DNA from: Myxococcota bacterium
GTDB lineage: Bacteria; Myxococcota_C; UBA6777
Reading direction: 5' to 3'
DNA: 51,157 nt
Assembly: GCA_023150835.1 (NCBI GenBank)
Contig: JAKLKB010000032.1
Coordinates: forward strand, 1 to 51,157
This document shows, piece after piece, positions 33,208 through 51,157 of the stretch (positions within the stretch are counted from its first letter, which is position 1; each line of letters opens with the position of its first letter). Made by a program: the position numbers and the translations under genes. The notes under the pieces are model-generated. The model ran no database searches, had not been told where the DNA came from, and was given only the letters and a program-made list of their open reading frames with translations.

Positions 33208-34542
33208 ATGTCCAACAACAAAACTTTCAACGAACGCTACAGCGAAGCTCTGCCTTTGTTTCGTGCTGAAAACTACAAAGCTGCTTTGCCGCTTTTTCAA
33301 TCCCTACTACCCGAAGCGCCTGATCCCAAGGACCGCGCAAAGATATTGGCCAATATCCTTTCTTGTTTGCGGAAACTCGAACACAACGACAGCGCTTATT
33401 GGAAACAGATCGCGGGTGACTATGCCAAAACCCTTCACGATCCTGACGCTGTGAACTGGCCGAGCCAGCCCGCAGAGCAAGCCTTTGAAAAACTTGCCTG
33501 TGCTCTTTTTGAATACGATCCACAAGGCAGCTATGCGTTCTTGCTTGATCTCTATCGCTCCCTACCGACGGCCTTTTGTGCTGCTTTTGAAACGGGTCTT
33601 GCGACCGCCTTTGATCAAGAAGCCCGTCAATACGACCGTGCAGGTCACGAGGATCGTGCGCGGCAGATGGGCGAGCTTTATCTCGAATTGACCGCGTCCA
33701 GCACTGAGCACAAGGGAACCCGCGTCGCCATCCGCAACCGACTCGCCGATATGCTGATCTTCCATGCCTCCCGCGCAAACGAAGATCTCGAACGTCGCGC
33801 TTTCATGCTCTTGCAGGAGAGTCTCCAAGAACAACCCGACAATCGCTTTGCACGTTCTCTCCAAGAACACATCGCCCAACGCAACACTTTTCGCTTGCAG
33901 ATCGATCGCTTTTGGCATGACACACACAACCGCATCGCGCCGATGAAGACCAGCCTTCGCCGTCTACAAGAAGCCCCGCTCTCCAAACCGCTCCAAGACG
34001 CTGTTTCCGATCTCGACTACAACTTGGGCCTGATCGACACCAGCTTGCGTCTTTCAGGTGCTGCCCAAGGTTCATCGGCTGTCTTGCAACCTTCGCCCCA
34101 ACAATACCAAGACGTCGATCCTGTCGGCGTCTGCCGCGAGACGCTCCGACAAAATCACCTTGATCCAGAGGCGGTCGTTTTTCTCGGTCAGCCCGCTCCT
34201 TGGGAGATCGCCCCCAGCTATCTCGGCCTTGCTCTCCACAATCTCCTCCTCAACAGCCTTGAAGCCTACCGACGGCGTTCGCTACCTTTGCCGCAGCAGC
34301 CCGTCACCCTGACCATCGACTATCACCTCCAAACCATTCGTGTTTGTGACGCTGCTGGCGGGATATCTCCGCATATCTCTGATCCCTTTCTCCCTTACGT
34401 CTCGGAAAAAGGCGTGCAGATGACGTCTGGACTTGGACTCCTCCAAGCTCGCGAAGCCATCCGAGCGATGGGCGGTTCTTTGGTGCTTGATCCCCAACAA
34501 CCCAACGGCGGAGCCGCGTTCTTGATCCAATTGCCTCGTTGA
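33208..34542 (+). CDS. Cytoplasmic sensor histidine kinase with a TPR-like N-terminus
   Basis: AAGGAG RBS; H-box DRFWHDTHNRI, N-box LHNLLLNSLEA, DAAGGI, PFLPYVSEK, SGLGLL; no transmembrane segments seen. Confidence 0.85.
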   Translation: MSNNKTFNERYSEALPLFRAENYKAALPLFQSLLPEAPDPKDRAKILANILSCLRKLEHNDSAYWKQIAGDYAKTLHDPDAVNWPSQPAEQAFEKLACALFEYDPQGSYAFLLDLYRSLPTAFCAAFETGLATAFDQEARQYDRAGHEDRARQMGELYLELTASSTEHKGTRVAIRNRLADMLIFHASRANEDLERRAFMLLQESLQEQPDNRFARSLQEHIAQRNTFRLQIDRFWHDTHNRIAPMKTSLRRLQEAPLSKPLQDAVSDLDYNLGLIDTSLRLSGAAQGSSAVLQPSPQQYQDVDPVGVCRETLRQNHLDPEAVVFLGQPAPWEIAPSYLGLALHNLLLNSLEAYRRRSLPLPQQPVTLTIDYHLQTIRVCDAAGGISPHISDPFLPYVSEKGVQMTSGLGLLQAREAIRAMGGSLVLDPQQPNGGAAFLIQLPR

Positions 34543-34840
34543 TCTCCACGGCTCCAACACACAACAACACCGCTACAGCGGGGCCGCTTTCTTTGATCTA
34601 TGTGGACTCTTTCCTCTCTTTAGGAGGCTTTTGTGGACAAAAAACCCCGTGCTCTCGCCCGATCAAGCGACAGCGTTGTTTGTTTGAAAAACAATCGCTC
34701 TCTTCGCCAAACACGGGGTCAAGGGGGCCGAGACCCCTTGCGGGGTTTGGGGCAGCGCCCCATCAAACAAGCCAACTGCGTCAGTTCTTTCTTTACCTTG
34801 CTCCCAACAACAACGGGAGCGCACACAAAAGGAAACGCCA

Positions 34841-35941
34841 ATGCAACACGAACGTCGCCGTGTCCTCTTGATGGACGATGAGATCGCTTCCAGCCCATTG
34901 CTCAAACAAACTGTACAGGCGCTGCGCGAAGCGGGCTTCGATGTCACCGAAACCGACCGTATGTCCGCTGCGATGGATGCTTTTTATCAAAGCTACTATC
35001 ACATCTTTATCCTCGATATCGATATGAGCTTTGTCGAAGATATCCAAAATGGCGATGGCTCCGATGTCGCTCGCTTCTTTCGCGCCCTTGATAGCGAAAC
35101 CAACGTGATCTTTTTCAGCGCCCGTGGAAAGATCCGCCATTGGTTTGCCGCCGCAAACTACCATCTCTTCGGCTATGTCTTCAAAAGTGATGGCCCTGAT
35201 CCCATCCAAAAGCTGGTCGATCTCGCCCAACAAGCCGCCACCACAAAACCTCCGCACTCTTCGTTGTTGCGAAAACCCAGTCCCCCTCAACGTGCGATGC
35301 TTTACTTGCCTTCCTCCCTCCAGTCCGTCTCCGCACAAGACCTCCAACGTTGGACGCAAGAGGCCCTTCCTTCGTGGGAGATCGTCTCCTTCTCCGAAGC
35401 CCCTGACGCCGCCCTTCAACTCGAACAATCTCCCCGTACATGGGGGCTTGTGATCGCTGCTTCCGATTCTTTTTCCACTCGACCCCGACAAATCGGACCG
35501 ATCCGACAACTCTGTCGCCCTGATCTCCAACCCCACACGATCTACGCCTGTTGCGGCATCGAAAACAACAAAGACGCCATCTTGGATCTCGTGAACGCCC
35601 ATCCTTTCCGCTTCCTTGATCTCCTTGACACCGACTTCTCTTCCCAATTCACACAGGCCATCCTCGATGCTGTCCGACTCTACGGCCTCCAAGAGCGCTT
35701 GCTTGCTTCTCCCGATGCTCTCAAACGCCTTCGTCTCGACTTTTCCGAGGAAACCTACGCTCTTGTTCGCGACTCTTTCCCTGATGACCACGCTTGGGAG
35801 ATCGCCGAAGATTCTTCCGACTCTCTCGACGCTTCCGACCAAGAATACACAGACGACTCTTCCGACGATCCCGAAAACGATGACCAAGGCACCTCCGAAA
35901 CATCTCCTGCCCCCCATCCTCACAAGGAGGAACTCACATGA
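34841..35941 (+). CDS. Response regulator with a REC domain, a second REC-like domain and an acidic tail; no DNA-binding output domain
   Basis: VLLMDDE, IFILDIDM, FFSAR, GYVFK. The second domain has the HPFRFL pattern. The C-terminus is Asp/Glu-rich. Confidence 0.8.
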   Translation: MQHERRRVLLMDDEIASSPLLKQTVQALREAGFDVTETDRMSAAMDAFYQSYYHIFILDIDMSFVEDIQNGDGSDVARFFRALDSETNVIFFSARGKIRHWFAAANYHLFGYVFKSDGPDPIQKLVDLAQQAATTKPPHSSLLRKPSPPQRAMLYLPSSLQSVSAQDLQRWTQEALPSWEIVSFSEAPDAALQLEQSPRTWGLVIAASDSFSTRPRQIGPIRQLCRPDLQPHTIYACCGIENNKDAILDLVNAHPFRFLDLLDTDFSSQFTQAILDAVRLYGLQERLLASPDALKRLRLDFSEETYALVRDSFPDDHAWEIAEDSSDSLDASDQEYTDDSSDDPENDDQGTSETSPAPHPHKEELT

Positions 35942-37047
35942 ACACCCGTCCCTCCGCTCCCAACGTCTTTCGCAAACCTTCTCCTTCGCACCGTCCTTCA
36001 CGTCCCACACGCACTGCACCCCAAACCTTCATCCTCGATACCAACATCCTCCATCTTTGGGTGATGGAGATGACCGGTACCCCGCCTCCTTCTTCTTTCG
36101 ATCACATCCGCGCTCAAAAAGAACACGAAAAGCGCGCACGCGCCAAAAGCTTTTGCGAAAGCGCTTGCTCCCAACGCCTCTTTGTGATCCCCCCCGTCGT
36201 TTGGGTCGAGCTGTACGGTGTCCTTTTACAAAAAGATATCGATGTCTCCAACTATGTTCATTGGCGTCGTCTCCGCAAAGCCGCCCTCCAGCCGCTTGAG
36301 TCGATGATCGGGATGTCGGGGACTTTTTTTTCCATCGGTGAAGAAGAACTCGATCACGAACGCGCTGTCGAGATGTGCCGTGCTGAAGCCTCCGCAGAAC
36401 TCCTTGCCGCGTGGTCCGAGCGCGTCGGGCGTACCTATGACGACGGACGCCCCGTTGTGATCAAGGGACTTGACGGCATCGATGCCGCGATCTTGTCCTA
36501 CGCATGGAGCTATGCAGAAGCCCATCCTGATCGCGAAGTTCGTCTTGTCAGCGACGATCACGGCCTCGGCTTGATGGTTCAAGAACTCCACCGTTCCCCC
36601 AGCCTCGCTGGCGAAGAAATGCCCCCAAATCTCGGCTTCCGTAGCCTTTGGGGCAAACGCTTTCCCGAAACCCTCTCTTTCCATCCTCCTTCCACACCAC
36701 CCACCGCCACTTCCACTAAAGACGTCGTCTCCCCTACATCCACCGCCACTTCCTCTCAAGGCTCCACCATCCCCCCCAAAAACGCCGTCTCCCCCAAAGA
36801 CGCCGCCTCTCCTACACCCACCGCCACTTCCACTAAAGACGCCGCCTCCCCTACAACCACCGCCACTTCCACTAAAGACGCCATCTCTCCTACACCCATC
36901 GCCACTTCCGCTAAAGACGCCGTCTCCCCTACATCCACCGCTGCTTCCTCACCCTCTCCCGTCTCTCTGCCCTCGCCCGCTGTTGCGAACTCCGATACCG
37001 CAAACACACTTGCGCAAACGGCCTCGACTGTGTCAGAAAAACCCTAG
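35938..37047 (+). CDS. PIN-domain ribonuclease with a Thr/Ser/Pro-rich repeat tail
   Basis: ATGA overlap with the regulator; the PIN acidic tetrad is visible in FILDTNIL, VWVELY, DGIDAAIL, LVSDD; C-terminal KDAxSPTxTATST repeats. Confidence 0.8.
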   Translation: MNTRPSAPNVFRKPSPSHRPSRPTRTAPQTFILDTNILHLWVMEMTGTPPPSSFDHIRAQKEHEKRARAKSFCESACSQRLFVIPPVVWVELYGVLLQKDIDVSNYVHWRRLRKAALQPLESMIGMSGTFFSIGEEELDHERAVEMCRAEASAELLAAWSERVGRTYDDGRPVVIKGLDGIDAAILSYAWSYAEAHPDREVRLVSDDHGLGLMVQELHRSPSLAGEEMPPNLGFRSLWGKRFPETLSFHPPSTPPTATSTKDVVSPTSTATSSQGSTIPPKNAVSPKDAASPTPTATSTKDAASPTTTATSTKDAISPTPIATSAKDAVSPTSTAASSPSPVSLPSPAVANSDTANTLAQTASTVSEKP

Positions 37048-37218
37048 CCACACTCGCCCGCCCTCGGGCCGCTTCTGAAAGGAGCAACTCCCTGAGAAAC
37101 CCCGTTTCCGCGCCCCCACCAAGCGGCACAGTCGTTGGATTGAAACACCACTGCTTGTCCCGCCAATACGGGGTCAAGGGGGCAAAGCTCCCTTGCGGGG
37201 TTTGGGGCCGCGCCCCAA

Positions 37219-37405
37219 AAGAGCAGTCCAAAAACCCAAAAAGATCAAACCAAAAACCCAAACCAAAAGATCACCCCTCTTTTCCCTTCCCTAAATACAC
37301 AAGGACCGAGCAAGAGCAATCCAAAAACCCAAAAAGATCAAATCAAAAACCCAAACCAAAAGATCACCCTTCTTTTCCCTTCCCTAAATACACAAGGACC
37401 GAGCA
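37219..37405 (+). repeat. 93-bp direct duplication of the CARF gene 5' region, including its RBS
   Basis: Two near-identical copies end in ACACAAGGACCGAGCA; the first is followed by AG and the second by TG, which forms the start codon. Confidence 0.85.
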
Positions 37406-38886
37406 TGACGAACCAAACTCCGTTACAAGAAAAAACCGCTGAATGGAAGCGCCTTGCCGAAGAAGGAAAGGGCTCTGTTGACGAAGCCACCGCCTTTTAT
37501 GATCGCGAAGTGTTTCCGCTCGTTCGCACCCACTTCATCGAAGATGCCGAAGCGAAGGGCATTCACCCTGTTGACGCGCTGATCTTGCCCGTAGGCACAA
37601 GCCCTGAGCCGATTATCTTGTCCATCTTGGCCCTCAAGCCGCAGCGCGTGATGTTTTTGCCCACCCCTCAAACCCGCCAGCATCTCGACCGCATCATCGC
37701 TGAAACCCAGCTCAAACCCAGTCAATACCAAGACAAGACGATCGATGGCTCCGATGTCTTGGAGATCTACCGATGTATGCACCAAGCCGTCCGCGAGTGG
37801 CCTATCGCCACAAAGATCGGCGTCGATATCACCGCTGGAAAAAAGGTCATGTCCGCAGCTTGCGCCATTGCAGGCACCCTGATCGAGATGCGGATCTTTT
37901 ACGTCGATAGCGACTACCTCCCCAAACTCCGCCGCCCCGAACCCGGAACCGAGTACTTGAGCGAACTGCCCAATCCGCTCGTTGTCTTCGGCGATATCGA
38001 AGAACGTGAGGCCCGTAAACTTTATGCTGCCGCTGATTATGCCGGTGCTGCCAAACTTTGGGAACACCTCGCCATACGCATCCAAAACCCCACCGCTCCG
38101 GCTCTTTTCTCCTTCCTCGCACGTACCTACGAAGCGTGGGATCAACTCCACTACGCCAACGCCTTGGCTTCCATCCAAAAGCTCAATCAATCCGTCCGAC
38201 AATTTGGAAAAGATGCGCCTGTGTTTTTTCAATCCCACAAAGACCGCCTTTTCAAACAACAGCGCCTGCTCGAACGCATGGCCCATTCCGTCGATGAGAT
38301 GGGCAAAGAGACCGCTCTTGATTTGCAGATCCTCCAACAAAAAGACGCCATCCACGCCCTGATCCTCGAACTTTGGGCCTACGCCCAACGCAAGATCCAC
38401 CTCCGCGACCTCTCGACCGCCTCCTTGCTTCTGTATCGCACCGCCGAGCTTCTTGCACAACGCCGCCTTGCCCTTTATGGCATCGATCCTTCTCTCGCCG
38501 ATTATGCCCAACCCGGTATCGATCCCCAAGCCCTTCTCGATGCCGTCAATGCCCAACGCGTTTCCTTTAAATTTGAACGCCTCCAAGAACTCCCCATCAA
38601 GATCGCTATGCTCGATGCCTACGTGCTTTTGATCGCTCTCAACGATCCTTATGCTGCTCCTCTGGCCGAAAAACAATACAGCGGACTACAGCGCTTCAAT
38701 GGCATCATCAAGGCCCGAAATTCCTCGATCTTTGCTCACGGCTTTAAATTCGTCGCAGACGAACACGTCCGAAAAATGCGCGCCGAAGTCGAAGCACGCT
38801 TGCTTGATTTCTTCCGTGTCGAGGGCGTCTCCGATCCAGAGATCCAAGCCCAACAACAAGAACATTGTTTCCTAACCTTGGAGTGA
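37405..38886 (+). CDS. CRISPR-associated CARF protein with a C-terminal HEPN-like RNase motif (TIGR02710/Cas_02710-like)
   Basis: CARF motifs LILPVGTSPEPII and VDITAGKKVMS; IFYVDS...RRPEPGTE...LPNP; LYRTAEL; HEPN-like RNSSIFAHG. Confidence 0.85.
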   Translation: MTNQTPLQEKTAEWKRLAEEGKGSVDEATAFYDREVFPLVRTHFIEDAEAKGIHPVDALILPVGTSPEPIILSILALKPQRVMFLPTPQTRQHLDRIIAETQLKPSQYQDKTIDGSDVLEIYRCMHQAVREWPIATKIGVDITAGKKVMSAACAIAGTLIEMRIFYVDSDYLPKLRRPEPGTEYLSELPNPLVVFGDIEEREARKLYAAADYAGAAKLWEHLAIRIQNPTAPALFSFLARTYEAWDQLHYANALASIQKLNQSVRQFGKDAPVFFQSHKDRLFKQQRLLERMAHSVDEMGKETALDLQILQQKDAIHALILELWAYAQRKIHLRDLSTASLLLYRTAELLAQRRLALYGIDPSLADYAQPGIDPQALLDAVNAQRVSFKFERLQELPIKIAMLDAYVLLIALNDPYAAPLAEKQYSGLQRFNGIIKARNSSIFAHGFKFVADEHVRKMRAEVEARLLDFFRVEGVSDPEIQAQQQEHCFLTLE

Positions 38887-38926
38887 CCCAAGGCTATCTG
38901 CGAACTTGTATCATAGGAGAATTTCG

Positions 38927-39904
38927 ATGTATGGACTCGAAAAGCTGGAGATCGCACAGGTCTCTTGTCTCTTGCGAGCCAAGCGAAGCGCGGAGCTTCC
39001 ACCTTACCTTGGCTCGACTTTGCGTGGAGCGATCATCGATGCGATGCGGGCGACGGCTTGTCCGATGCGTTGCGAAAAGGTCGATGCTTGCGAAGGCAGA
39101 GCGCATTGCCCTTATGCTTATTGCTTTTCACCGCCACCACCGCCCCGCCAAGAAAACCTTCGGGGCTTTCTTGATCCCCCCCGCCCTGTCTTTGTGATCC
39201 CTCCGCCGATCCAAGCCACCGCGTGGGAACCTGCTCAACCTCTGCCCTTTGATCTGATCTTTGTGGGCCGTTCGATCACTTATTTTCAACAAGTTGCGGC
39301 TTCGCTGATCTTTGCTGTGCAGCATGGCCTCGGAAAAGGCCGCGCCCCTTTTGATTTGCTTGCCGTTCAAAATTGCCTCGGTGAACACAAAGGCGTCTCT
39401 CTTTGGAACCAAAACAAAGACTTCTTTTTGCCTGTTCAACCCACTCCCATCGCTGATGTTTTTCCCCTTCAGATCGGCCCTTCTGATACTGTACATATCA
39501 CTTTTCTTTCTCCGCTGCGTCTCGTCGAGCAAAACAAACTGCTGATGAAGCTTTCGTTTCGGTCTTTTTTCGGCCCTTTGTTGCGCCGTCTCTCTTCTCT
39601 TTTGTACTTCCACTGCGACGGCGAGTTGCAGATGGATATCCGTGATACCTTGTCCCGCGCTGAATCCGTTCAAACCCTCTCTTCTCACCTCGAATACGTC
39701 CCCCTCGAACGTTGGAGTAGTCGGCAAAATCAACACGTCCCGATGGATGGCTTGATGGGTTCGATCCTTTGGAAAGGCGATCTGATCCCTCACGTCTGGC
39801 CTTTGTTGCAGATCGGTTCGTTGCTCCACGTCGGCAAAGGCGTCAGTCTCGGTCTTGGGCGTTATCAGATCTCTTCTCTTCCTTCTCTTCCTTCTCTTCC
39901 CTAG
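38927..39904 (+). CDS. cas6: CRISPR pre-crRNA processing endoribonuclease Cas6 (variant with a Cys-rich N-terminal insert)
   Basis: AGGAGA RBS; YLGSTLRGA, CxxxC...C...CPY, PPRPVF, GLGKGR, FLSPLRL, and the G-rich loop HVGKGVSLGLGRY. Confidence 0.9.
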   Translation: MYGLEKLEIAQVSCLLRAKRSAELPPYLGSTLRGAIIDAMRATACPMRCEKVDACEGRAHCPYAYCFSPPPPPRQENLRGFLDPPRPVFVIPPPIQATAWEPAQPLPFDLIFVGRSITYFQQVAASLIFAVQHGLGKGRAPFDLLAVQNCLGEHKGVSLWNQNKDFFLPVQPTPIADVFPLQIGPSDTVHITFLSPLRLVEQNKLLMKLSFRSFFGPLLRRLSSLLYFHCDGELQMDIRDTLSRAESVQTLSSHLEYVPLERWSSRQNQHVPMDGLMGSILWKGDLIPHVWPLLQIGSLLHVGKGVSLGLGRYQISSLPSLPSLP

Positions 39905-40630
39905 TTGGAAATTCTCTGCGGAGGTTCCACCCCACGCCCCTTCTTGTTTTGTGGGGTTCCACCCCACGCCCCTTCTTGTTTTGTGGGGTTCCACCCCACG
40001 CCCCGCAAGGGAGCGCGGCTCCCTTGACCCCGTATTGGCGGGGCAAACAGACGTTTTTCAAACCAACAACGGCTCCGCTTGAAAGGGCGCGAACACGGGT
40101 TTTTTTGGCAACTGCGTCTCTCTTCTCCTAATTGGACCTATACGATATCCGCGTGATCGGTGATCGAAGGAGAGTACGTAGACGCCCGATTGTTGGGCAG
40201 CCACAGGGGGCTGCCCCTACCTTTTTACGATAAGTCAACGGGCGGATCTCGTATTATGCGGTTGAAAAGGGAAACCCTGAGATATCAGAACGTTGTAGGG
40301 GCGGTTCGCGAACCGCCCACGCCCGAACATCTGCCTTTTTCGTATCGAACTGCGTAAGTCCTATCCTAATTGGAATACGGTATCCGAGAGATGTGTACCT
40401 AAAGCAAACGTCTGCGAATACGTCTTTTTTCTCTGCACGCCACTCCTTTTTTTCAAAAACAACAGCTATGTTTCTTGAACGTCTGCGAACGCGTCTTTTT
40501 TCTCGATAAGCCACTCCTATCTTCGCAAGCTATTTCTTTTCTTCTGTTTGGTTTGTTCTCTCGGGATGTCGGGGATTTTACCCTGTGGTTCTGTATGGGC
40601 AAAGTGACACAAAAAGAATGGAGGTTTGCT

Positions 40631-43117
40631 ATGACAACGCTTCGGATGGACGGGCTTTTTTCCCGCGTTGTGTCGATCGCGTCTCTGCGCAGCGCTTTTT
40701 TTGAAGAACTCGATCGCAGCGAGGCGATCGGCATGGATGGGATGCGGCCTAGCGAATTTGGCAACGATCTCGAACGCGAATTGAGCCGCTTGCACGAAGA
40801 GCTGATCAACGGACGCTATCGCGCCCAACCTGTCGTTCGGATATTTGTTCAAAAACCAAACGGTGGCCGCCGTGCATTGGGGATTAGCGCTGTGCGTGAT
40901 CGTGTCTTGCAACGCTCGATCTTGCGAGCGCTGGCACCGATCTTTGAAGAGCGCTTTCTGGACTGCTCCCACGCATATCGTCCCCGTCGTTCGGCACAAA
41001 CGGCGCTTCACCACCTGCTCTCTTTGCGTGATGCGGGCTTTTCATGGGTGGTCGAGTCCGATATCGAAGATTGTTTTGGTTCGGTGGATGGCCCGCTGTT
41101 GCAACGTGAACTCGAAGCCATTACGGGCGATATCCAGCTTTCTCATCTGGTGATGCGCATCCTTCAATCGGGTGTCTTGGAATCTGGTTGCTTGCGCGAT
41201 GCCTATCTCGGACTACCCCAAGGAAGTCCCTTGAGTCCGCTGCTTTCCAACATCTATCTCCATCCCTTTGATGTCGAACTGGTTCAAGCTGGTTATCCAC
41301 TTGTCCGATACGCCGACGACTTTGTTGTTCTTGCTCACGATCAAAAAGAAGCTGAGATCGCTCTCCAAGCTGTACAAGATGCCCTCGCCCTTCGCGCTTT
41401 GCGACCCCACCCCCAAAAAACACGCCTTTCTCGTTTCCAAGACGGCATCTCTTTTCTTGGCTTTCTGATCGATGCTCAAGACCATCGGCCTAACCCCAAG
41501 TCCATCCAAAACCTTCTCGACCGACTCAATGAGGCCCGCTCTTCCCGTACTAAGCTCTCTCCTGCCGAACGCTTCGCCCAAAACGAAGCGATCCTTCAAG
41601 GTTGGCGTGCTTATTTTTCTCACTTCGGCGATCTTTCTCTGCCTCATCCTGAACAAGCCCTTGCTGCCGCATCCGTCGCTTTACGCCACAACGAAATACC
41701 CACCGCACAGCGCTTTTTGAAACAATCCGCCTCCCTTCACGAACCCTTTTTCGTCCAGCGCCGCACAGAACTCCAGCACAAGCTGTCTCAACTCTCTCCA
41801 CACAAAGGGCTTTTGTCGATCCAGCGCCACGTGCCTTCCTCTACCCCCCGCCGTCTCCTCCCTTACGGCCCCTCCGCTACACATATCGAAGCTCTCCCTC
41901 GCACTCCTTCCCCCACTCCCCCACAATACCCGCAGATCGACCCTTCCTTTCCGTTCGATACCTCGCCGATCACTGCCTCCAACCGCATCCATACTCCTTC
42001 CACGCCTTCTGACCGCACCGATACCCTCGACGCTATCGCCCTGAATCGCATTGACACGCTACCTCCCACGCCTTCTGACCGCACCGATACCCTCGAAGCC
42101 ACCGCTCTACACCCTCTCGGAGCCCACCACATCGCGCTCTCGATCCACACCGAGTCGATGGAGCCGCCGATCTCGCCGCTCCTTCGGCCCGATGTTTCCC
42201 CCTTGGAAGAGATCGAGGTGCTTCGGCGCGAACGCCTGCGTTTTCCCGATGAACCCACGATCTTGTTTGAGCTTGCGGAGGTGTATTGGCGTGCTGATCA
42301 GCCCTTGATCGCGACACATCTCCAACAGATCGCCGAAGCCCTCCCTCGATCTCCTGCTTTCCTTCCGATGCGTTGGCGCACAGAAGGTCCGATCCTTCGC
42401 CAAACACACGCCCTCGAAGATGCCTACTTTGCGCTGTTTTCGCGTGCCTCACACTTTTTGACTTACGGTGTGCAGCCCGATGGGCGCTTGCAGATCATCC
42501 CGCATGATGGGCGCTTTGGAGCGTTGCAGCTTCTTTCGCATCTGCGCGGTGACGCGATCTTTGGAGCGTATCTCTTGCGCCCTGATCAACGTACGCTGTT
42601 TGCGGCCTTGGAGGTTGAACCGACGCAGCGTATCTTGGCGGATGCTTGGAAAGATCCACACGAACGCAGCCAAGCCTCTCAGGCAGCTTGCCTCTACATA
42701 CTCGAAGCCGTCCGACGCTTGCGCGTTTGGGGCATCTCACCCTTGCTTCAACAAAACGGACAACATGGTTTTCGGCTGTGGCTTTTTTTTGCAAACCCTC
42801 AATCTACCGCCTCGATCAAGCGCTTCTGGCGTTCTTTGTTTGTATTCCTTCCTCCTCTTCCCACAGGACTCAGCCGTCAGTCTTTCCCCGAAAGCCCCAG
42901 CGAGCGCTGGCCGCATGGAGGCCGCCCGATCACCTTGCCGCTCGGCTCTCATCCGCGTACAGGCCGACGCACCTTACTTTTGAACCCCGAAGATGCCTCC
43001 ATTCAAGACGTTGAAACCGCCCTCCATTCGGTCCGAATGCTCGATGACTCCGCGCTCTCCCGTGTCTACAACGCTTTCCCCAACCCATCACAACCTCGGC
43101 CTCGACGCAAACACTGA
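40631..43117 (+). CDS. CRISPR-associated group II intron-like reverse transcriptase fused to a TPR-like unit and a degenerate AEP primase-polymerase domain
   Basis: GGAGGT RBS; RT motifs GMDG, KPNGGRRALGI, RDRVLQ, SHAYRP, ESDIEDCF, GLPQGSPLSPLLSNIYL, YADDF, FLGF; thumb-like LQGWRAYF. The C-terminal ~200 aa aligns by eye with the AEP domain of the next gene. Confidence 0.9.
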   Translation: MTTLRMDGLFSRVVSIASLRSAFFEELDRSEAIGMDGMRPSEFGNDLERELSRLHEELINGRYRAQPVVRIFVQKPNGGRRALGISAVRDRVLQRSILRALAPIFEERFLDCSHAYRPRRSAQTALHHLLSLRDAGFSWVVESDIEDCFGSVDGPLLQRELEAITGDIQLSHLVMRILQSGVLESGCLRDAYLGLPQGSPLSPLLSNIYLHPFDVELVQAGYPLVRYADDFVVLAHDQKEAEIALQAVQDALALRALRPHPQKTRLSRFQDGISFLGFLIDAQDHRPNPKSIQNLLDRLNEARSSRTKLSPAERFAQNEAILQGWRAYFSHFGDLSLPHPEQALAAASVALRHNEIPTAQRFLKQSASLHEPFFVQRRTELQHKLSQLSPHKGLLSIQRHVPSSTPRRLLPYGPSATHIEALPRTPSPTPPQYPQIDPSFPFDTSPITASNRIHTPSTPSDRTDTLDAIALNRIDTLPPTPSDRTDTLEATALHPLGAHHIALSIHTESMEPPISPLLRPDVSPLEEIEVLRRERLRFPDEPTILFELAEVYWRADQPLIATHLQQIAEALPRSPAFLPMRWRTEGPILRQTHALEDAYFALFSRASHFLTYGVQPDGRLQIIPHDGRFGALQLLSHLRGDAIFGAYLLRPDQRTLFAALEVEPTQRILADAWKDPHERSQASQAACLYILEAVRRLRVWGISPLLQQNGQHGFRLWLFFANPQSTASIKRFWRSLFVFLPPLPTGLSRQSFPESPSERWPHGGRPITLPLGSHPRTGRRTLLLNPEDASIQDVETALHSVRMLDDSALSRVYNAFPNPSQPRPRRKH

Positions 43118-43202
43118 TGAGGAACCGATCATGCGATCCCAAAATAAATCCTGCTTTGCTCTCCTTCTCTTCTTTCAATACAACCACCCATAGGAGCCGA
43201 TC

Positions 43203-45650
43203 ATGCAAACCGAGCCGCTGCTTCTTTCTGCAAAGTGTTGTGTTGAACAGGCCGATCTCTCCGCGCTTACCGCTTTGCTCCGATCCTTCGATAGCCCTTC
43301 GATCCAAGACCCAGCCTTTCATCTCGAATTGGCCGGATCTTGCGAAAAGATGGGCTTGCTCGATCTGGCCGTTCGCGAGTGTGGCCTTGCACTCCGTGAT
43401 GCTCCCACTCTTGAGGCTGCGCTGCGCTGTTCCCTCCGCCTTTCTCTCGAACAAGGAAACCTTCCTCACGCCGAACGCGACGCCCGACTTTTGCTTCAAA
43501 CCTACCCTCAAGATGTCCCGCTGCGTCTTGAGCTTGGTCGGATCCTTGAGATCTCGGGCCGCTTTAACGAAGCCCTCGAAGTCTACCAATCCACCACGCA
43601 GGGACACGAAAGCCCCCAACTTCAAGAGGCCAAACGGCGTGCAGCGCGTTATGCCCAACGTGGACGTTCTCGACCTGCCGTCGACGATCCGATCTTTCAT
43701 GACGCTTCGGACCCTGAGCAGGCTTCTACACAGTCCCATGATCCCGAACCTCTCGCCCCCACAGAGGCTGATGCGATCTCTTTCGCTCATCTCTTTTCGG
43801 GTCGTGAAGGCGTCTATGCCCGCCAGTGGTATAGCGATACGGGAAAGTCTGGATACACACCCGTCCACCAACCCTTCACTCCGCTTGTTGCGCGCAGTCA
43901 TCTCCTTGGAAATTATACCGTCGGCATCTACCCTTTGCGCATGAATCACAGCGTTTTGTTTCTGGCGTTTGATGTCGATATCGTCCAAGAAGCCCTCACA
44001 AAGGCCGCAAAAGATCAGCAACCCCACGAACTCCCTCGTCTGATCCGCACCGCCCACTCTGTTGCTCGCCAACTCCTTGATGCTTGCGCCATGTTTGATA
44101 TCCCCGCTGTTGTCGAAGATTCTGGATGGAAAGGGCGGCATCTCTGGATCTTTTTCTCCGAACCTGTCCCTGCCGCCTCAGCGCGGCGGATCGCGCAATG
44201 GCTGCTCCACACCGTCGGCCCTCTCCCCGAAGTCTGCCGCGTCGAGATCTTCCCCAAACAATCGCGTCTTGATCCCAAGCAGCTCGGAAACTTGATCAAG
44301 CTGCCTCTCGGCATCCATCGCGTCACAGGCCGCATATGCGCACTTTTGAACCCCGACGGCTCTCACATCGAGCGCCCCATCGAACACTTGCGCTCTCTCA
44401 AAAAATTGTCTCGCCAACGTCTCCAAGAACTCCTTGTCCACGCCGATCACATCGCTTCTCTCAAACAAGAGCGGCAACACGCACCGCCCAAACAGACCAA
44501 ATACCTCGATCCCATCGACTCCAACACCGCCCCTCAAAGCGCCGAGCTTGCTCCCTCCGCCCATCCCCCTTCCCCAACGCCTGCTCCCTACCGCGTCGGC
44601 AAAGACGAGGAAGTCGAGCAAGTCTTGCGTGGTTGTCCTGTCTTGCGCGCCATCGTCGGACGTGCGCTCTCCACCGGTATCCTTTCCAGCGACGATATCC
44701 ACATCCTGATCTACACGATGGGAAACCTCACCCAAGGCGATGCTGCCGTCAATGCCGTCCTTTCCAAAGTCCACAACGTCGATCCGCGTGTCAAACTCAA
44801 ATCTCCCCTCCGCAGCTACCCTACCAGTTGCCCAAAGATCCGCGCCCGTCTCCCCGAACTCACCGCAAGCGTCCCTTGCCATTGTGCTTTTCCCCAACAC
44901 ACAGGCTCTTATCCTCATCCTCTCTTGCATCTCGCTCGCCCTCCACAACTCCCCTCCGCTCCCACGATCTCTCCCTATCCATCCAAGAACCCGCCCTCTG
45001 CGATCTCTTCCTCTGATCCTGCCCCATCCTCCGACCACTCCGCGCTTCCTTACGAAAAAGCTCCCCCCACGATCTTCTCTCCGTTTCATCCTGCCCCATC
45101 CTCCGATCACTCCGCGCTCCCTTACGAAAAAGCTCCCCCCACGATCTTCTCTCCGTTTCATCCTGCCCCATCCTTCGACCACTCCGCGCTCCCCTACGAA
45201 AAAGCTCCCCCCACGATCTTCTCTCCCTCCCGGCCTGTTCTCGCCACAGACGGCTCTCCTCGATCTGCCGAATCTGCGCCTCCATCGTGGGAGATCCTTG
45301 AAAAACCATCCCGCACGCCTTCGCGCTCTGAACTCGAGTCTTGGACCCACCGCCTCCAACAAGCCCACCAAGATCTCTCGCACGCACAACAATCCATCCT
45401 CGCTCTTGAGCACAAGATCGCCCAATTCCTCCACAACCAAGGCACCCAAGAGTGCAAGACTCGATTCGGAACCCTTCGCGTCGACTCCAAACAACGCGTG
45501 CATTTTCTTCTCGAATCTTCTTCTCCTGAACACCTCTCCCCTTCGACCGATCCTCTCGCATCCTCCGAGTCTTCCTCTTCTTCTCCGCACTTTTCCGATG
45601 CGCCTCTCCCCGAGGATGGCGACGACGACACACACGGAGGCCACCGATGA
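43203..45650 (+). CDS. TPR-containing CRISPR-associated primase-polymerase (CAPP; AEP domain plus Cys-rich C-terminal domain)
   Basis: N-terminal TPRs; AEP motifs LFSGREGVYARQW, AFDVD (I), SGWKGRHLW (II), VEIFP (III), GNLIKLPLG; Cys cluster GCPVL...SCPKIR...CHC; 72-nt x3 repeat; ATGA overlap with cas1. Confidence 0.88.
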   Translation: MQTEPLLLSAKCCVEQADLSALTALLRSFDSPSIQDPAFHLELAGSCEKMGLLDLAVRECGLALRDAPTLEAALRCSLRLSLEQGNLPHAERDARLLLQTYPQDVPLRLELGRILEISGRFNEALEVYQSTTQGHESPQLQEAKRRAARYAQRGRSRPAVDDPIFHDASDPEQASTQSHDPEPLAPTEADAISFAHLFSGREGVYARQWYSDTGKSGYTPVHQPFTPLVARSHLLGNYTVGIYPLRMNHSVLFLAFDVDIVQEALTKAAKDQQPHELPRLIRTAHSVARQLLDACAMFDIPAVVEDSGWKGRHLWIFFSEPVPAASARRIAQWLLHTVGPLPEVCRVEIFPKQSRLDPKQLGNLIKLPLGIHRVTGRICALLNPDGSHIERPIEHLRSLKKLSRQRLQELLVHADHIASLKQERQHAPPKQTKYLDPIDSNTAPQSAELAPSAHPPSPTPAPYRVGKDEEVEQVLRGCPVLRAIVGRALSTGILSSDDIHILIYTMGNLTQGDAAVNAVLSKVHNVDPRVKLKSPLRSYPTSCPKIRARLPELTASVPCHCAFPQHTGSYPHPLLHLARPPQLPSAPTISPYPSKNPPSAISSSDPAPSSDHSALPYEKAPPTIFSPFHPAPSSDHSALPYEKAPPTIFSPFHPAPSFDHSALPYEKAPPTIFSPSRPVLATDGSPRSAESAPPSWEILEKPSRTPSRSELESWTHRLQQAHQDLSHAQQSILALEHKIAQFLHNQGTQECKTRFGTLRVDSKQRVHFLLESSSPEHLSPSTDPLASSESSSSSPHFSDAPLPEDGDDDTHGGHR

Positions 45651-46759
45651 TCCTTTATCTTGTCGAACAAGGATGCACTGTCGGACTCAAGAGCGAACGC
45701 CTTGAGATCCGTAAGCAACAAGAGGTCTTGGACAGCTTTCGTCTTGACGATCTTGAACAGCTTGTGTTGTTTGGGTACATCCAACTCACCACCCAAGCCA
45801 TTCAAGCCCTTCTCAAACGCGATATCGACGTCTGTTTCCTGTCTCGCAGCGGAGTTTTTTTAGGCCGACTCGCCGGGAAAATGGGCAAACAGATCGAGTT
45901 GCGTCGCAAACAATTCGCAGGGCTTGAGCAGTCGGCCTTTGCGCTTGATCTTGCGCGCCGTTGCATCGTCGGAAAACTCGCCAACCAACGGGCGTTGCTG
46001 ATGCGTTATCAACGCAAACTCACCGACCCCTCGATCGCGCAGGCCTTGCTTGGAATCCGCCTACTTGTCGGGCAAATCGATCAAGCCCAAGATCTCGATG
46101 TGTTGCGTGGTTTGGAGGGTAAAGCTGCGGCGTTGTACTTCGGTGTGTTGGGGCGGCTGATCTCTGCGCCGCAAGTCCACTTCACCACCCGCATCCGCCG
46201 CCCGCCCCCTGATCCTGTCAATATCTTGCTCTCCTTTGGCTACACTTTGCTCACCAAGATGGTGCATGGCTTCGTTGAGTCCGCTGGTATGGACCCATAC
46301 CTCGGAGCGTTGCATGCTCCGCGTTATGGACGTCCAAGTCTCGCACTCGATCTCGTCGAAGAATGGCGTCCTGTGATCGTCGACACTGCGGTCTTGCGTG
46401 CCATCAACACCAAAACCATCTCTCCTCAAGATTTCCTACCTGCACCCACTTCGCACGATCTTTGGCCCGAAGAATCCATCGAAGAGGACGAGATATCCCT
46501 TCTCGAACCGCCTTCTTCTTCCCTCGATCCGAACCCAGACGCCGAAGATGCCGCGTCTCCTCCGCGCCCTTTGTTGATGCAGCCCGAAGCCGTCAAGCGC
46601 TGGTTCGCTCTCTACGAACGGCGACTCCAAGAAGAAACTTTTTACCTTCCCAAACAATGCCGACTTTCTTATCGCCAAATCATTCGAGAGCAAGCCTACC
46701 TGTGCGCACGCCACCTCAAAGGGGAGGCCGAATACACTTCTTTTCTTCACGAACCTTGA
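45647..46759 (+). CDS. cas1: CRISPR-associated endonuclease Cas1
   Basis: LYLVEQG, GKLANQ, RGLEGKAAALYF, RRPPPDPVNILLSFGY, DPYLGALH, SLALDLVEEWRPVIVD. Confidence 0.96.
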   Translation: MILYLVEQGCTVGLKSERLEIRKQQEVLDSFRLDDLEQLVLFGYIQLTTQAIQALLKRDIDVCFLSRSGVFLGRLAGKMGKQIELRRKQFAGLEQSAFALDLARRCIVGKLANQRALLMRYQRKLTDPSIAQALLGIRLLVGQIDQAQDLDVLRGLEGKAAALYFGVLGRLISAPQVHFTTRIRRPPPDPVNILLSFGYTLLTKMVHGFVESAGMDPYLGALHAPRYGRPSLALDLVEEWRPVIVDTAVLRAINTKTISPQDFLPAPTSHDLWPEESIEEDEISLLEPPSSSLDPNPDAEDAASPPRPLLMQPEAVKRWFALYERRLQEETFYLPKQCRLSYRQIIREQAYLCARHLKGEAEYTSFLHEP

Positions 46760-46891
46760 TCTTGTTTCGGGTTGCGCAGGGGAGGCGAGTGTTGTCTCGC
46801 GATCTTCTCCTTCTTGATGATCGGATGGCTGGGGTTTGGAAGTCTTCTTGGTTTTTTCACGCAAATTTTGTCAACATGGATGGAACAAGCG

Positions 46892-47170
46892 ATGCTTTAC
46901 CTTGTCGTGAGTTACGATATCACCGAAGATCGACGGCGAAACCGAGTCGCCAAGCTGATGGAAAACTATGGCACGCGTGTGCAGTATAGCGTCTTTGAGT
47001 GCTTGCTCCAAGAGCAAAGCCTGCTTGAACTCCAAGAGCAGTTGCAGGCGATCTTGGATCTGGAAACGGACAGCGTGCGTTTTTACCGCTTGTGTGTTCG
47101 ATGTCGAGCGGGCATCGAGATATTCGGGCGCGGAACAACACAAAGCGAAGAACCCTTTGTAATTCTTTAG
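46892..47170 (+). CDS. cas2: CRISPR-associated endonuclease Cas2
   Basis: VVSYDITEDRRR, YGTRVQYSVFEC, DSVRFYRLC. An alternative ATG lies at 46880. Confidence 0.96.
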   Translation: MLYLVVSYDITEDRRRNRVAKLMENYGTRVQYSVFECLLQEQSLLELQEQLQAILDLETDSVRFYRLCVRCRAGIEIFGRGTTQSEEPFVIL

Positions 47171-47440
47171 CTTTCCTTTGTTTTGTGTTCAGTTCGCTTG
47201 CGTTGAAACGCGCCGTTTGTTCTTTGTGGGTTGTTTGTGTGGAGCGTTGAGTTTGTTCCTTATGTTTGTGTGGGGCTTTGCCCCACGCCCCACAAGGGAC
47301 TTTCGCCCCTTGACCTCGACTCGGCGGAACGGATCGACGTTTTACACACAAACGACTCTGCCGCTTGAGTCTTCGCGAACGTGGGGGGTTTTGTTCTCTA
47401 CATCGCCCCACGCAGAAGATTTCATGCGTTGTTCTCTGCG

Positions 47441-47670
47441 AGGGGTTCGCGACCGGCTTTTTTCTTGTTCGTCAACGTGGGTGGGGGGTCGCGACCGGCT
47501 TTTTTGCTGCTCGTCAACGTGGGTGGGGGGTCGCGACCGGCTTTTTTGCTGCTCGTCAACATGGGAGGGGGTTCGCGACCGGCTTTTTTGCTGCTCGTTA
47601 ACGCGGAAGGGGGTTCGCGACCGGCTTTTTTGCTGCTCGTTAACGCGGAAGGGGGTTCGCGACCGGCTTT
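47441..47670. repeat. 42-nt tandem repeat (5 copies plus a partial) between cas2 and the CRISPR leader
   Basis: TCGCGACCGGCTTT recurs at 47447, 47489, 47531, 47573, 47615 and 47657. Confidence 0.9.
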
Positions 47671-47859
47671 CGTTTTGGGTGAAAGTGTTAAGTGAAGTTG
47701 ACAAGCCGAAGCCCCGCAGATCACACGAAGCACAAAAGATCATGAAAAAGCAGCGCGTGTAATTATAAAGGTGGGGCTCTCTTTGGTGGGTGGGTGGTTT
47801 CACGAAAACTGTGATTAAGATCACTTTCCCGAGCAGGTCGACTTTTTTGCGCGAGCGAC

Positions 47860-48090
47860 CCATCACAAACCTATCGTTCTATAACATAAGCTATTGTTTT
47901 TACTTTGCTTCTGCTTAAATCGTGAATCGCCATTCAGTGAAGGGGGTGCATAGGTCGCGCAGTGCCTTGAAATTACAAATGATTTTTCATGAACGATTAT
48001 TCACTCAGAAGGCCCCCCCCCCCCGAGGGGGGGGGTGCATAGATTTTCCCTAAAAAAGTCCTTGCAAGAGAAGGCTCTCCGCGCTATACC
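47860..48090 (+). promoter_or_regulatory. CRISPR leader
   Basis: AT-rich non-coding stretch directly before repeat 1. It contains the direct repeat GGGGGTGCATAG twice, a C12-GA-G9 hairpin, and TTGCAA-N17-TATACC abutting the repeat. Confidence 0.75.
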
Positions 48091-51000
48091 CTTACTAGAG
48101 CTTCCGCGTTCGCAAGCGGATTGAAACTGAACGTTGTACACAGAAACGGTTGCCCCCTCAAGGCCTTACTAGAGCTTCCGCGTTCGCAAGCGGATTGAAA
48201 CGACTTTTTGTTCCTCGACTTTTTGTTCCTCGACTTTCTTACTAGAGCTTCCGCGTTCGCAAGCGGATTGAAACGTTCCCGTTCCTTTTCTCTCAGATGC
48301 CCACAGCTTACTTACTAGAGCTTCCGCGTTCGCAAGCGGATTGAAACCCCCCGCATATAAGAAAAGGCACTTATGTGGAATTCGCTTACTAGAGCTTCCG
48401 CGTTCGCAAGCGGATTGAAACTTAAAAGTGTCCATCATCGTTAAGACGGCTTTCGCGGCTTACTAGAGCTTCCGCGTTCGCAAGCGGATTGAAACATCGG
48501 ATCAAACCAAAGTCGATCACATCTGCCAACGGCTTACTAGAGCTTCCGCGTTCGCAAGCGGATTGAAACATCACGTCACTAACCGCAATAGATGTTTTCA
48601 ATGACTTACTAGAGCTTCCGCGTTCGCAAGCGGATTGAAACCTTGCAACTTTGATGTTGCACCTTAACCATGTTACCTTACTAGAGCTTCCGCGTTCGCA
48701 AGCGGATTGAAACGGGTTGGCATTTGAGCCATTGCTCGCTCAGCAGGGTTCTTACTAGAGCTTCCGCGTTCGCAAGCGGATTGAAACCTTGCTTAGATTC
48801 CACTCTTCCGTAGGGAATTCAAACTTACTAGAGCTTCCGCGTTCGCAAGCGGATTGAAACTTCAAGTTGGGGTGTTTTGGGTGTTCTGGGTGTTTTGCTT
48901 ACTAGAGCTTCCGCGTTCGCAAGCGGATTGAAACCCACAAGCACACCCACGGGTTGGAGATGACATAGCCTTACTAGAGCTTCCGCGTTCGCAAGCGGAT
49001 TGAAACGAAGAGACGAACAGGCGGGTAACCACACTCCATTCTTACTAGAGCTTCCGCGTTCGCAAGCGGATTGAAACCTACGCAGAAGGGCGGCGAATCC
49101 GTATCTACGGTTTCTTACTAGAGCTTCCGCGTTCGCAAGCGGATTGAAACGTTTGTCGGAGGGTTTGGGGTTGGGGAGGCGCTGTGCTTACTAGAGCTTC
49201 CGCGTTCGCAAGCGGATTGAAACCGTCAGCGTCGGCGGGAACGTTAGGGAATTGGATATCCCGCTTACTAGAGCTTCCGCGTTCGCAAGCGGATTGAAAC
49301 TTTTCCTTCAAAAAACTCACGATGTGTCTTCGACCTTACTAGAGCTTCCGCGTTCGCAAGCGGATTGAAACAAAGGTAGCGACTCCTTGACTTCGGGGGT
49401 GAGGCCCCCTTACTAGAGCTTCCGCGTTCGCAAGCGGATTGAAACTGGGCGGCTTCGGCGGCGGCTTCGGCGTCGCGTTGCTCTTACTAGAGCTTCCGCG
49501 TTCGCAAGCGGATTGAAACCGCCATCTCCCTATCAAAGCGGGAGGCGTAGCATGTGCTTACTAGAGCTTCCGCGTTCGCAAGCGGATTGAAACGATGTTC
49601 TTTGCGTGCGGCGGCTCGTCCCCAAGATCTTACTAGAGCTTCCGCGTTCGCAAGCGGATTGAAACAGTAGTAAAGGACTAGCCCCCGCACGGCCACGATG
49701 TGGCCTGCGTCGCGCTTACTAGAGCTTCCGCGTTCGCAAGCGGATTGAAACTATCCACGGGGCAGGATGTTGTACGGAAGCCCCTCACTTACTAGAGCTT
49801 CCGCGTTCGCAAGCGGATTGAAACCTTCGGCTTGGGCTTCGGCTTCTGCCTTGCGACCCTCTTACTAGAGCTTCCGCGTTCGCAAGCGGATTGAAACTAG
49901 GACGATGTCGGCTGCGCGTCGCAGGGCGATGCGAACTTACTAGAGCTTCCGCGTTCGCAAGCGGATTGAAACGCCTTTCTCCACAGCACCTGCGGCGATG
50001 TGGAGCTCAAAGCCATCTTCCTTACTAGAGCTTCCGCGTTCGCAAGCGGATTGAAACTTCGGGAGCCACTGGAATGGCCGCTTCGCCGTCCTCTTACTAG
50101 AGCTTCCGCGTTCGCAAGCGGATTGAAACTCTTTCCATTTTTTGGAAAGAAAAAGGTGCCGTACTTACTAGAGCTTCCGCGTTCGCAAGCGGATTGAAAC
50201 CCACCAAGGTCTTGAGGAACTCGGGCACCTCGCCCCCCTTACTAGAGCTTCCGCGTTCGCAAGCGGATTGAAACAAAGTAATCATGGTAATATTCTCCAT
50301 TTTTTTTGTCTTACTAGAGCTTCCGCGTTCGCAAGCGGATTGAAACATTCCGATTACGAGGGGGACGCCGGCGACGACTCCAAGGACTTACTAGAGCTTC
50401 CGCGTTCGCAAGCGGATTGAAACTGGGCGGCTTCGGCGTCTGCGTCGCGTTGGGCCTTGCGCTTACTAGAGCTTCCGCGTTCGCAAGCGGATTGAAACAG
50501 GGTCTCGAACACGTCAATCAGCCGACGCGCAGTGAACGCGCTTACTAGAGCTTCCGCGTTCGCAAGCGGATTGAAACGGAGGGGGAGCGGGGTTTGTCGG
50601 AGGGTTTGTGCTCTTACTAGAGCTTCCGCGTTCGCAAGCGGATTGAAACTATCATAGAGCGCGGTGTGATGGTCGTCGTCATCGTTCTTACTAGAGCTTC
50701 CGCGTTCGCAAGCGGATTGAAACCAGTTAAACACCAGCTCTGCGAACTTCTTGACGTGGCTTACTAGAGCTTCCGCGTTCGCAAGCGGATTGAAACAAGG
50801 CCGCGTCCAATGCGGCTGCGCAGCAGCCGAGCGCTTACTAGAGCTTCCGCGTTCGCAAGCGGATTGAAACGGCGATCGCACCGTCAACGGCGGCGTGGGG
50901 CGTATCCTTACTAGAGCTTCCGCGTTCGCAAGCGGATTGAAACACATCTCGCACAACTCCCCCCCCTCATCATGGTACCTTACTAGAGCTTCCGCGTTCG

Positions 51001-51157
51001 CAAGCGGATTGAAACAACACTCCACCGCCTTGAACCCGCTTTGTGTTGCGGGGCTTACTAGAGCTTCCGCGTTCGCAAGCGGATTGAAACATATCTGCAT
51101 CAGGGTCACTTCTTAATTTCTTGTTCCTTACTAGAGCTTCCGCGTTCGCAAGCGGAT
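48091..51157 (+). CRISPR. CRISPR array with a 37-nt repeat; 42 repeats (last one truncated by the window end) and 41 spacers
   Basis: Invariant repeat CTTACTAGAGCTTCCGCGTTCGCAAGCGGATTGAAAC with a TCCGC/GCGGA stem and an ATTGAAAC 3' handle. Spacers are unique, mostly 34-40 nt and up to 49 nt. Confidence 0.99.

Follow-up and report, generated by a model that had tools for sequence, protein, structure and literature searches.

How is a reverse transcriptase (RT) tied to the CRISPR integrase when it is fused to neither Cas1 nor Cas6? RNA-derived adaptation is understood for RT-Cas1 fusions only. We studied this question in a 51,157-bp contig of a Myxococcota bacterium (JAKLKB010000032.1), referred to here as the window, which encodes an RT joined to a degenerate archaeo-eukaryotic primase domain (AEP*) directly upstream of an intact CRISPR-associated primase-polymerase (CAPP), cas1 and cas2. 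The window is an entire contig of a 7.56-Mb assembly that is 93% complete, and its end cuts off the CRISPR array and whatever lies beyond. We found that the presence of a fused and a stand-alone CAPP in one locus is a rare, recurring variant. From the comparisons below we consider it somewhat probable that labour is divided at this locus, with the RT copying RNA, the intact CAPP priming or filling in, and AEP* serving as a non-catalytic adaptor.

Everything from 37.4 kb to the contig end lies on the + strand, in the order csm6-like gene, cas6, RT(YADD)-helical/TPR-like-AEP*, TPR-AEP-Cys-CTD CAPP, cas1, cas2, leader and array (TPR, tetratricopeptide repeat; CTD, C-terminal domain). Pfam and NCBIfam searches and reading of the sequence thus bore out a preliminary description of the locus as to gene order and domains, including the YADD of the RT, and as to the ATGA in which the CAPP stop codon overlaps the start of cas1 (45647-46759; Pfam 2e-87). 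A GGAG lies 8 nt upstream of the CAPP start. As that description also had it, RT, Cas1 and Cas6 are separate genes and cas4 is missing from the contig; across the assembly, Pfam Cas4 had four matches, none of them on the CRISPR contig.

The RT-AEP* gene (40631-43117) starts at ATG 40631 and encodes 828 aa, rather than starting at 40475; the database record and an identically beginning orthologue agree. The protein matches RVT_1 (6e-29) and AEP-TOTE (1e-10) in Pfam, and scores 76.9 bits with PrimPol_Msp, under the 200-bit cut-off. Its RT part (residues 1-390, 40631-41800; RVT_1 101.6 bits) has group-II-intron-like fingers, a palm with YADD and a thumb, and carries the RT residues invariant in an alignment of relatives (A2). 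A Pro-rich low-complexity linker (residues 391-515, 41801-42175) leads to a segment of three helices (residues 516-590, 42176-42400) that is collinear with that of relatives. The preliminary description had called this segment TPR; the predicted helices make it TPR-like, and a Pfam search of the protein gave no TPR match. The AEP* domain follows (42401-43117) and has E/E/R/Q at the positions equal to D257/D259/H313/E348 of the neighbouring CAPP, so the claim of a degenerate fused AEP beside an intact CAPP holds. There are further changes at invariant positions (K310H, N363R, K366T), and the N-terminal FxxRxG...RQW block is lost. The protein ends about 20 residues past the AEP (stop codon 43115-43117), without the Cys-rich CTD and C-terminal helix into which five relatives go on.

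Despite the loss of catalytic residues, AEP* is predicted to keep the Prim-Pol fold. An AlphaFold2 model built on a 20-row alignment (pLDDT 88.2, pTM 0.75) has three helices (9-22, 27-39 and 43-55 in model numbering) preceding the AEP core, and its best Foldseek matches were the Prim-Pol chains of MsCAPP (target-normalised TM 0.82-0.84, E 9e-15). Recent duplication of the AEP within the locus was rejected: AEP* is 32% identical to the neighbouring CAPP AEP over 189 residues and 28% identical to the AEP of a relative from the same family, and hundreds of TPR-CAPPs share 40-50% identity with the CAPP.

The stand-alone CAPP (43203-45650, 815 aa) consists of TPR (aa 1-185), AEP (186-410) and CTD (456-580), then a repeat-rich tail and a C-terminal helix. 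It scored 288.5 bits with NF040561 (PrimPol_Msp), above the cut-off of 200, 1e-42 with AEP-TOTE, and 110.7 bits against the Prim-Pol domain of MsCAPP (7nqd). Its TPR matches are weak and below the Pfam cut-offs; custom hidden Markov models (HMMs) of the N-terminal region and the CTD gave 157 and 182 bits. The catalytic set D257, D259, H313 and E348 is intact, and the protein carries every residue invariant in an alignment of 16 TPR-CAPPs: D257/D259 in motif I, S307/G308/K310/G311/H313/W315 in motif II, E348/F350/P351/Q353 in motif III, N363/K366/H372, and the CTD cysteines C478/C543/C559/C561. By score, catalytic residues, TPR and Cys-rich CTD, and its operon with cas1-cas2, it belongs to CAPP type A1/CAPP-TPR (NF040561), and primase, polymerase and strand displacement activities are predicted for it. 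At least 702 of 8000 candidates scored were homologues at E<=0.001; the 120 listed were typically 40-50% identical, came from Myxococcota and Desulfobacterota metagenome-assembled genomes (MAGs), were called CAPP type A1 or TPR protein where named, and included none with an RT domain. An intact TPR-CAPP with cas1 and cas2 is the standard CAPP-Cas1-Cas2 cassette, common in Myxococcota and Desulfobacterota. A 72-nt repeat (2.9 copies, 45016-45226) in the CAPP gene encodes the 24-residue Pro/Ser-rich repeat of the C-terminal tail.

Is loss of the catalytic set usual when an AEP is fused to an RT? CAPP-TPR and CAPP-RT types were defined in 2021 by Zabrady et al. (PMC8211822). In 2023 Zabrady et al. 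(PMC10415136) described the Ca and Gl CART-CAPPs, RT-CAPP fusions from Caloramator australicus (CCJ33120) and Geobacillus lituanicus, in which all synthesis comes from the RT and the Prim-Pol domain is inactive; the authors suppose such inactivity to be common and call the reason for retention of the domain unclear. Because fusions with an inactive Prim-Pol were thus already published, much of the surprise first claimed for the window is removed. Of the top 150 matches in an exhaustive HMMER search with the whole RT-AEP* protein, about 100 were RT+AEP fusions. In the RT-fused AEP rows (n=99, two proteins twice), 82 had D/D/H/E or D/D/H/D, 12 had substitutions with all the positions aligned, and 5 were partly aligned or truncated. 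The non-RT rows of the CAPP family had D/D/H/E in 125/126, the exception being a fragment of the window's orthologue. Most RT-CAPP fusions of the sampled family therefore look catalytically competent at the residue level, with inactivation the exception, and the published guess has to be qualified because 82/99 fusions keep the catalytic set.

One relative is such an intact protein, a 1110-aa RT-TPR-AEP(D/D/H/E)-CTD fusion (locus L016) encoded directly before cas1, with an RT 52% identical to that of the window; its genome belongs to the same family and another genus. Upstream of this single fusion is an ORF (open reading frame) with a SAVED domain (L016 5886-6431, G003:C804), pointing to cyclic-oligonucleotide signalling there as well.

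The preliminary description considered the tandem of both CAPP forms unusual. It is, though not unique. Among 80 TPR-CAPP loci from species genomes, 15 of which had at least 5-6 kb on both sides, cas1 lay beside the CAPP in 69 and an RT lay in the fetched flanks of 2, both in Myxococcota MAGs. L062 has TPR-CAPP, cas1, a short ORF without a Cas2-model match, and an RT-AEP(NNHQ)-CTD fusion; L088 has cas6, a stand-alone RT, csm6, TPR-CAPP, cas1 and cas2. A CAPP-family match at E<=1e-10 was present in 48 of 401 Myxococcota genomes (21 over the cut-off), and five genomes had two matches a few kb apart. No such close pair was seen in 401 Thermodesulfobacteriota genomes, 100 of which had a match and 50 a match over the cut-off. 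The window's own phylum is represented in the genome set searched by only six species genomes.

We then compared fused AEPs with and without a partner, in 17 fetched regions annotated with custom HMMs and 7 metagenome fusions. At the loci with a stand-alone CAPP (the window and five Myxococcota genomes) the fused AEP was degenerate in 6/6, with tetrads EERQ, NNHQ, STRE, --RQ, HRRA and DDTT, and the stand-alone AEP was intact in 6/6. Where the fusion was alone, its AEP was intact (DDHE) in 13/14 and degenerate in one (L106). This census does not include L105, L110, L113 and L114, which are short or at contig edges and have degenerate AEPs; in three of their genomes a TPR-CAPP is encoded on a different contig. 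Also left out were L104, with its overlapping frames, L112, the truncated L155, and L142, which nearly duplicates L141. Fisher's exact test of a degenerate fused AEP against a partner CAPP gave a raw p of 1.8e-4, a value that is overstated, five of the intact rows being near copies. From sequence, the link between the two is suggestive. Degenerate AEPs have three separate origins at loci with a partner CAPP, namely in the window, in L062 and in the clade of L098-L101, and one at a locus that lacks it (L106). A metagenome scan yielded 80 loci, mostly RT-only; an AEP was present in 8, and the 7 complete fusions all had DDHE and none had a separate CAPP. The nearest degenerate relatives, P0144 and P0145, were both absent from these 80 loci.

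Three further observations concern the family at large. One Myxococcota genome (G062) holds three CAPP-family loci: the RT with TPR-CAPP of L088, an intact RT-AEP-CTD with cas1-cas2 (L111), and, as the third, a partial AEP within a frame of 1004 aa (L112). At L104 (G091:C129:1-13000) an RT segment and TPR-AEP(DDHE)-CTD lie in overlapping long frames adjoining cas1-cas2; a frameshift may have broken an RT-TPR-CAPP fusion there, or an RT gene may simply abut a TPR-CAPP. Finally, matches of 45-87 bits to CAPP model positions ~157-350 recur in frames of ~800-1150 aa away from CAPP loci, in both Myxococcota and Thermodesulfobacteriota (for example G083:C1:2684527-2685051 and G792:C5:16913-17446), and are probably another AEP-containing family.

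If the fused AEP is catalytically dead, is it kept or is it decaying? A word-based protein search with the AEP* region found only RT-AEP* itself and one distant fusion; the exhaustive HMMER search gave a 303-aa fragment (P0143) 78% identical to the AEP* part, whose cluster contains an 801-aa orthologue, P0290. This orthologue likewise reads E/E/R/Q and stops early at the equivalent point, and its RT is 83% identical to that of the window. The CAPP pair P0002 and P0007 is 90% identical in AEP and CTD and 40% in the tail, where the window's CAPP and its orthologue differ by 83 gapped positions. For P0290 and for P0007 (a CAPP 80% identical) the source is an NCBI contig of 537,972 bp. For P0144 (EGRT), the closest degenerate relative of full length, and for P0008 (a TPR-CAPP 50% identical, the nearest of the more distant CAPPs), the longest contig listed measures 28,376 bp in each case; these shared contig figures suggest that RT-AEP* and CAPP were inherited together. 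In an RT tree of 168 rows the window fell in a fully supported clade of seven with two degenerate fusions, two intact fusions and two RT-only proteins, and the degenerate state needed at least 8 changes. Another clade comprised 8 RT-AEP proteins on end branches 0.33-0.89 long and had the full tetrad in 0/8 (6 degenerate, 2 partly aligned).

One explanation of the dead domain is redundancy and decay, in which the RT or the incoming CAPP took over and the fused AEP became a functionless vestige. The loci can indeed be arranged as a graded series, from the intact AEP alone (L016), through degenerate AEPs with CTD and a CAPP (L062, L098-L101) and the window's fusion, from which the CTD is already lost, to an RT without AEP beside a CAPP (L088), and takeover of priming and polymerisation by the RT has been proposed for the Firmicutes CART-CAPPs. 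The pattern of conservation speaks against a vestige, however: between RT-AEP* and P0290, AEP* is 79% and the TPR-like segment 88% identical, against 26% with indels (26 gapped positions) for the linker of the same protein. The AEP* fold is predicted at high confidence, and the clade of 8 still carries the domain with no member having the full tetrad, an argument for retention of the dead domain over decay. To judge by these comparisons AEP* is clearly under sequence constraint, and we regard mere decay as unlikely.

To which of the two CAPP forms does the integrase belong? The Cas1 of the window shares 58% identity with Cas1 from Myxococcota loci that have a TPR-CAPP only, and it groups with them (96*, 99*); its identity to the Cas1 of the family relative with an RT of the same lineage is just 37%. 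With dual loci set apart, the nearest Cas1s of the six dual loci are of the TPR-CAPP-only group, except that of L098, which is from L104, an unclassed RT..TPR-AEP-CTD locus. Because none of these nearest Cas1s comes from an RT-AEP-only locus, the integrase belongs to the intact CAPP cassette. Phylogenetically the locus is thus best described as a mosaic, with the Cas1 of the TPR-CAPP lineage, the RT of the RT-CAPP lineage, and an RT-AEP* without a Cas1 of its own lineage. In the simplest history, whose direction we infer, an RT-TPR-AEP-CTD + cas1 locus would have received a TPR-CAPP-cas1-cas2 cassette; the fused AEP would then have lost catalysis, and the CTD would have been lost in the window lineage only.

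Such a mosaic could also work as two independent routes into one integrase, with the CAPP capturing DNA spacers, the RT feeding in cDNA, AEP* binding nucleic acid only, and the two polymerases making no contact. The integrase does come with the CAPP cassette at all six dual loci by its nearest Cas1s; in 5/6 of them the RT gene either follows cas2 or is encoded on the other strand, uncoupled from the CAPP; and in vitro CARTs on their own support integration together with Cas1-Cas2 (PMC10415136). By itself, though, this scheme leaves unexplained why the fused AEP is degenerate in 6/6 dual loci and intact in 13/14 solo ones. The conserved TPR-like helices suggest protein contacts, and TPR mediates the self-association of MpCAPP (PMC8211822). 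We judge two separate routes to be improbable.

The locus is the adaptation module of a type III-associated CRISPR system, built from two CAPP lineages. The division of labour that we favour in it would run as follows. The RT would copy RNA and perhaps prime, as is known for other CARTs, whose RT domains prime and copy RNA and DNA (PMC10415136). At the integrase, the stand-alone CAPP would prime on DNA templates, make second strands or fill gaps, and displace strands; MpCAPP primes, polymerises and extends, and displaces strands (PMC8211822). AEP* and the TPR-like helices would be an adaptor, or a holder of nucleic acid or template, keeping the RT on CAPP-Cas1-Cas2. MpCAPP self-associates via TPR and CTD and binds Cas1 via its TPR+AEP part (PMC8211822). 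In a more specific form, which we put forward tentatively as a possibility, the dead Prim-Pol would be a dedicated adaptor through which RT-AEP* forms a heteromer with the intact CAPP and/or Cas1, as a pseudo-primase/primase pair, and hands cDNA straight to CAPP for priming of the second strand and to Cas1-Cas2 for integration. The pairing would then have arisen at least three times, each time where an RT-CAPP met a TPR-CAPP-Cas1-Cas2. Prediction of a complex between TPR-AEP* (313 aa, alignment A3) and CAPP 1-600 (alignment A1), run without controls, reached an ipSAE of 0.00 in each of two runs, where 0.32 was the mark; we use it neither for nor against binding.

Several points weigh against the proposed division of labour. 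The independent contrasts behind the census number 2 (well-supported branches) to 4 (all branches), with a median sign-test p of 0.5, and because there are only 2-4 of them the sign test cannot reach significance. L106 has a degenerate fused AEP (RVVE) without a separate CAPP in 11.7 kb or in its genome, and the published Firmicutes CART-CAPPs are inactive too, according to their authors (PMC10415136). The CTD is kept at all five other Myxococcota dual loci and gone in the window's fusion, and the window's RT-AEP* gene lies upstream of the CAPP rather than after cas2, so the window's fusion may work differently from those loci. The Glu-x-Glu of AEP* could still bind metal, leaving residual activity. 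The type III effector genes are not on the CRISPR contig, Cmr2/Cas10 being found on contig C111 (203 bits). The spacers are silent on an RNA origin and have no full-length match to the organism's own genome. Every activity and protein contact in the scheme, like any RNA-derived spacer, is a matter of prediction.

Does the RT-AEP* gene belong to the CRISPR module at all? It might encode an RT domesticated from a group II intron, or a defence RT that acts alone and happens to lie there. The best solved relatives of its RT are group II intron RTs (7uim, 155.7 bits; 6ar1, 149.9 bits), and TIGR04416 scores 266.4 bits. That score is nevertheless under the cut-off of 300, as is GIIM (17.6 bits) under its cut-off of 23, and the endonuclease domain is absent. 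An Rfam search (E<=1, 36000-51157) found no group II intron RNA and two unrelated sub-threshold matches only. On the absence of intron RNA and the RT/maturase score below the TIGR04416 cut-off, a mobile group II intron was rejected. The gene sits between cas6 and the CAPP on the same strand, and its RT-AEP relatives with usable context have cas1 in the locus in 20/20, directly beside them in the 14 solo loci and 1-3 genes away in the six dual ones. The preliminary description would have been undermined by an RT grouping with mobile group II introns and not conserved by cas1, and that combination was not found here. That the gene stands outside the module we hold to be very improbable indeed.

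Compared with known systems, RT-AEP* resembles the CART-CAPPs of C. australicus and G. lituanicus, sharing a group-II-like RT with YxDD at the N terminus, a Prim-Pol C-terminal to it, and linkage to type III cas1-cas2. It differs in that its RT appears distant from the CaCART-CAPP RT (8bgj, 37.0 bits, against 156 for a group II intron RT), in that it has no CTD such as that of CaCART-CAPP, and in lying beside a second, intact CAPP. The window's CAPP is like the TPR-CAPPs of Marinitoga piezophila (MpCAPP) and Marinitoga sp. (MsCAPP) in its TPR, AEP, Cys-rich CTD and coupling to cas1-cas2, and unlike them in its long repeat-rich tail and in the RT-AEP* gene directly upstream; no Argonaute neighbour was seen. 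The RT-Cas1 and Cas6-RT-Cas1 proteins of Marinomonas mediterranea and Thiomicrospira also join a group-II-like RT to type III adaptation machinery, and RT-Cas1 fusions capture spacers from RNA in type III systems (reviewed in PMC8632793). The similarity of the window's RT to Cas6-RT-Cas1 (7kft, 119.2 bits) covers the RT part only, and in the window RT, Cas1 and Cas6 are separate, so that a dead Prim-Pol domain would be the tether, if there is one. According to a review (PMC8632793), Toro et al. 2019 found RTs "adjacent or fused" to AEP in CRISPR loci, their clade 12, which an earlier paper of the Toro group described as Firmicutes-restricted (PMC6013744). An RT fused to an inactive AEP is therefore already published. 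In the parts available of the CART-CAPP and CAPP-Cas1-RT literature, supplements and Toro et al. 2019 aside, no account turned up of a locus with both a fused and a separate CAPP, and the paired architecture and its regularity seem undescribed.

The locus makes the stated question of why an inactive Prim-Pol is retained testable, since together these loci form a natural experiment with three states: the fusion alone with an intact AEP, the fusion plus CAPP with a dead but conserved AEP, and RT plus CAPP without a fused AEP. Should AEP* be an adaptor, this would answer why CART-CAPPs keep the inactive domain. As a docking module it would be a new coupling of reverse transcription to spacer integration, and RT-AEP*, CAPP and Cas1-Cas2 would make a compact set for RNA-recording tools. 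If docking is false, what is left is an ordinary mosaic that combines two CAPP types already known.

The remaining features of the locus, all on the + strand, flank these genes. The csm6-like gene (37405-38886) is a CARF/HEPN ancillary gene that marks the type III association (PF09670 9.4e-23; Csm6_6H; TIGR02710 137 bits against a cut-off of 83.9 bits), and a 93-nt direct repeat (two copies, 37219-37405) lies just upstream of it. The cas6 gene (38906-39904; PF10040 7.7e-15), whose start codon is uncertain, is followed by 726 nt of non-coding sequence 5' of the RT gene (39905-40630) with two copies of a hairpin resembling repetitive extragenic palindromes (REP-like) and short direct repeats. 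The domain in cas2 (46772-47170; PF09827 6e-25) begins at residue 43, and the true start may be further in. The leader region between cas2 and the array (47171-48090) contains one REP-like hairpin and a tandem repeat of 42 nt at 47442-47670 (5.5 copies, 94% matches); an ORF over this repeat (47178-47762) had no family match in Pfam or NCBIfam.

The array (48091-51157) consists of 41 identical 37-nt repeats at 48091-51090, ending ATTGAAAC, and a 42nd cut by the contig end; the repeat was found on no other contig of the assembly. It holds 40 spacers of 34-49 nt. Against the organism's own genome they gave only five matches, all partial (17-22 nt, E 0.002-0.009), and self-targeting or host-transcript spacers were rejected, none of these matches being full-length.

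The REP-like hairpin GTGGGGTTCCACCCCACGCCCC occurs at 10 sites over 110-47291 (for example 25471-25579, 39951-40004 and 47270-47291), with 0 expected by chance. The copies are often in tandem, are intergenic and are not specific to the CRISPR module; since there are 10 of them across the window, the idea that they bound a mobile module was rejected. Upstream of the csm6-like gene, a PIN-like ORF (35938-37047) contains 39-nt repeats (6.4 copies, 36698-36948). Further upstream of the CRISPR locus, a signalling gene cluster (18038-35941) encodes an FHA-VWA protein, Ser/Thr kinases, a PP2C-like protein, a second VWA protein, a histidine kinase and a response regulator.

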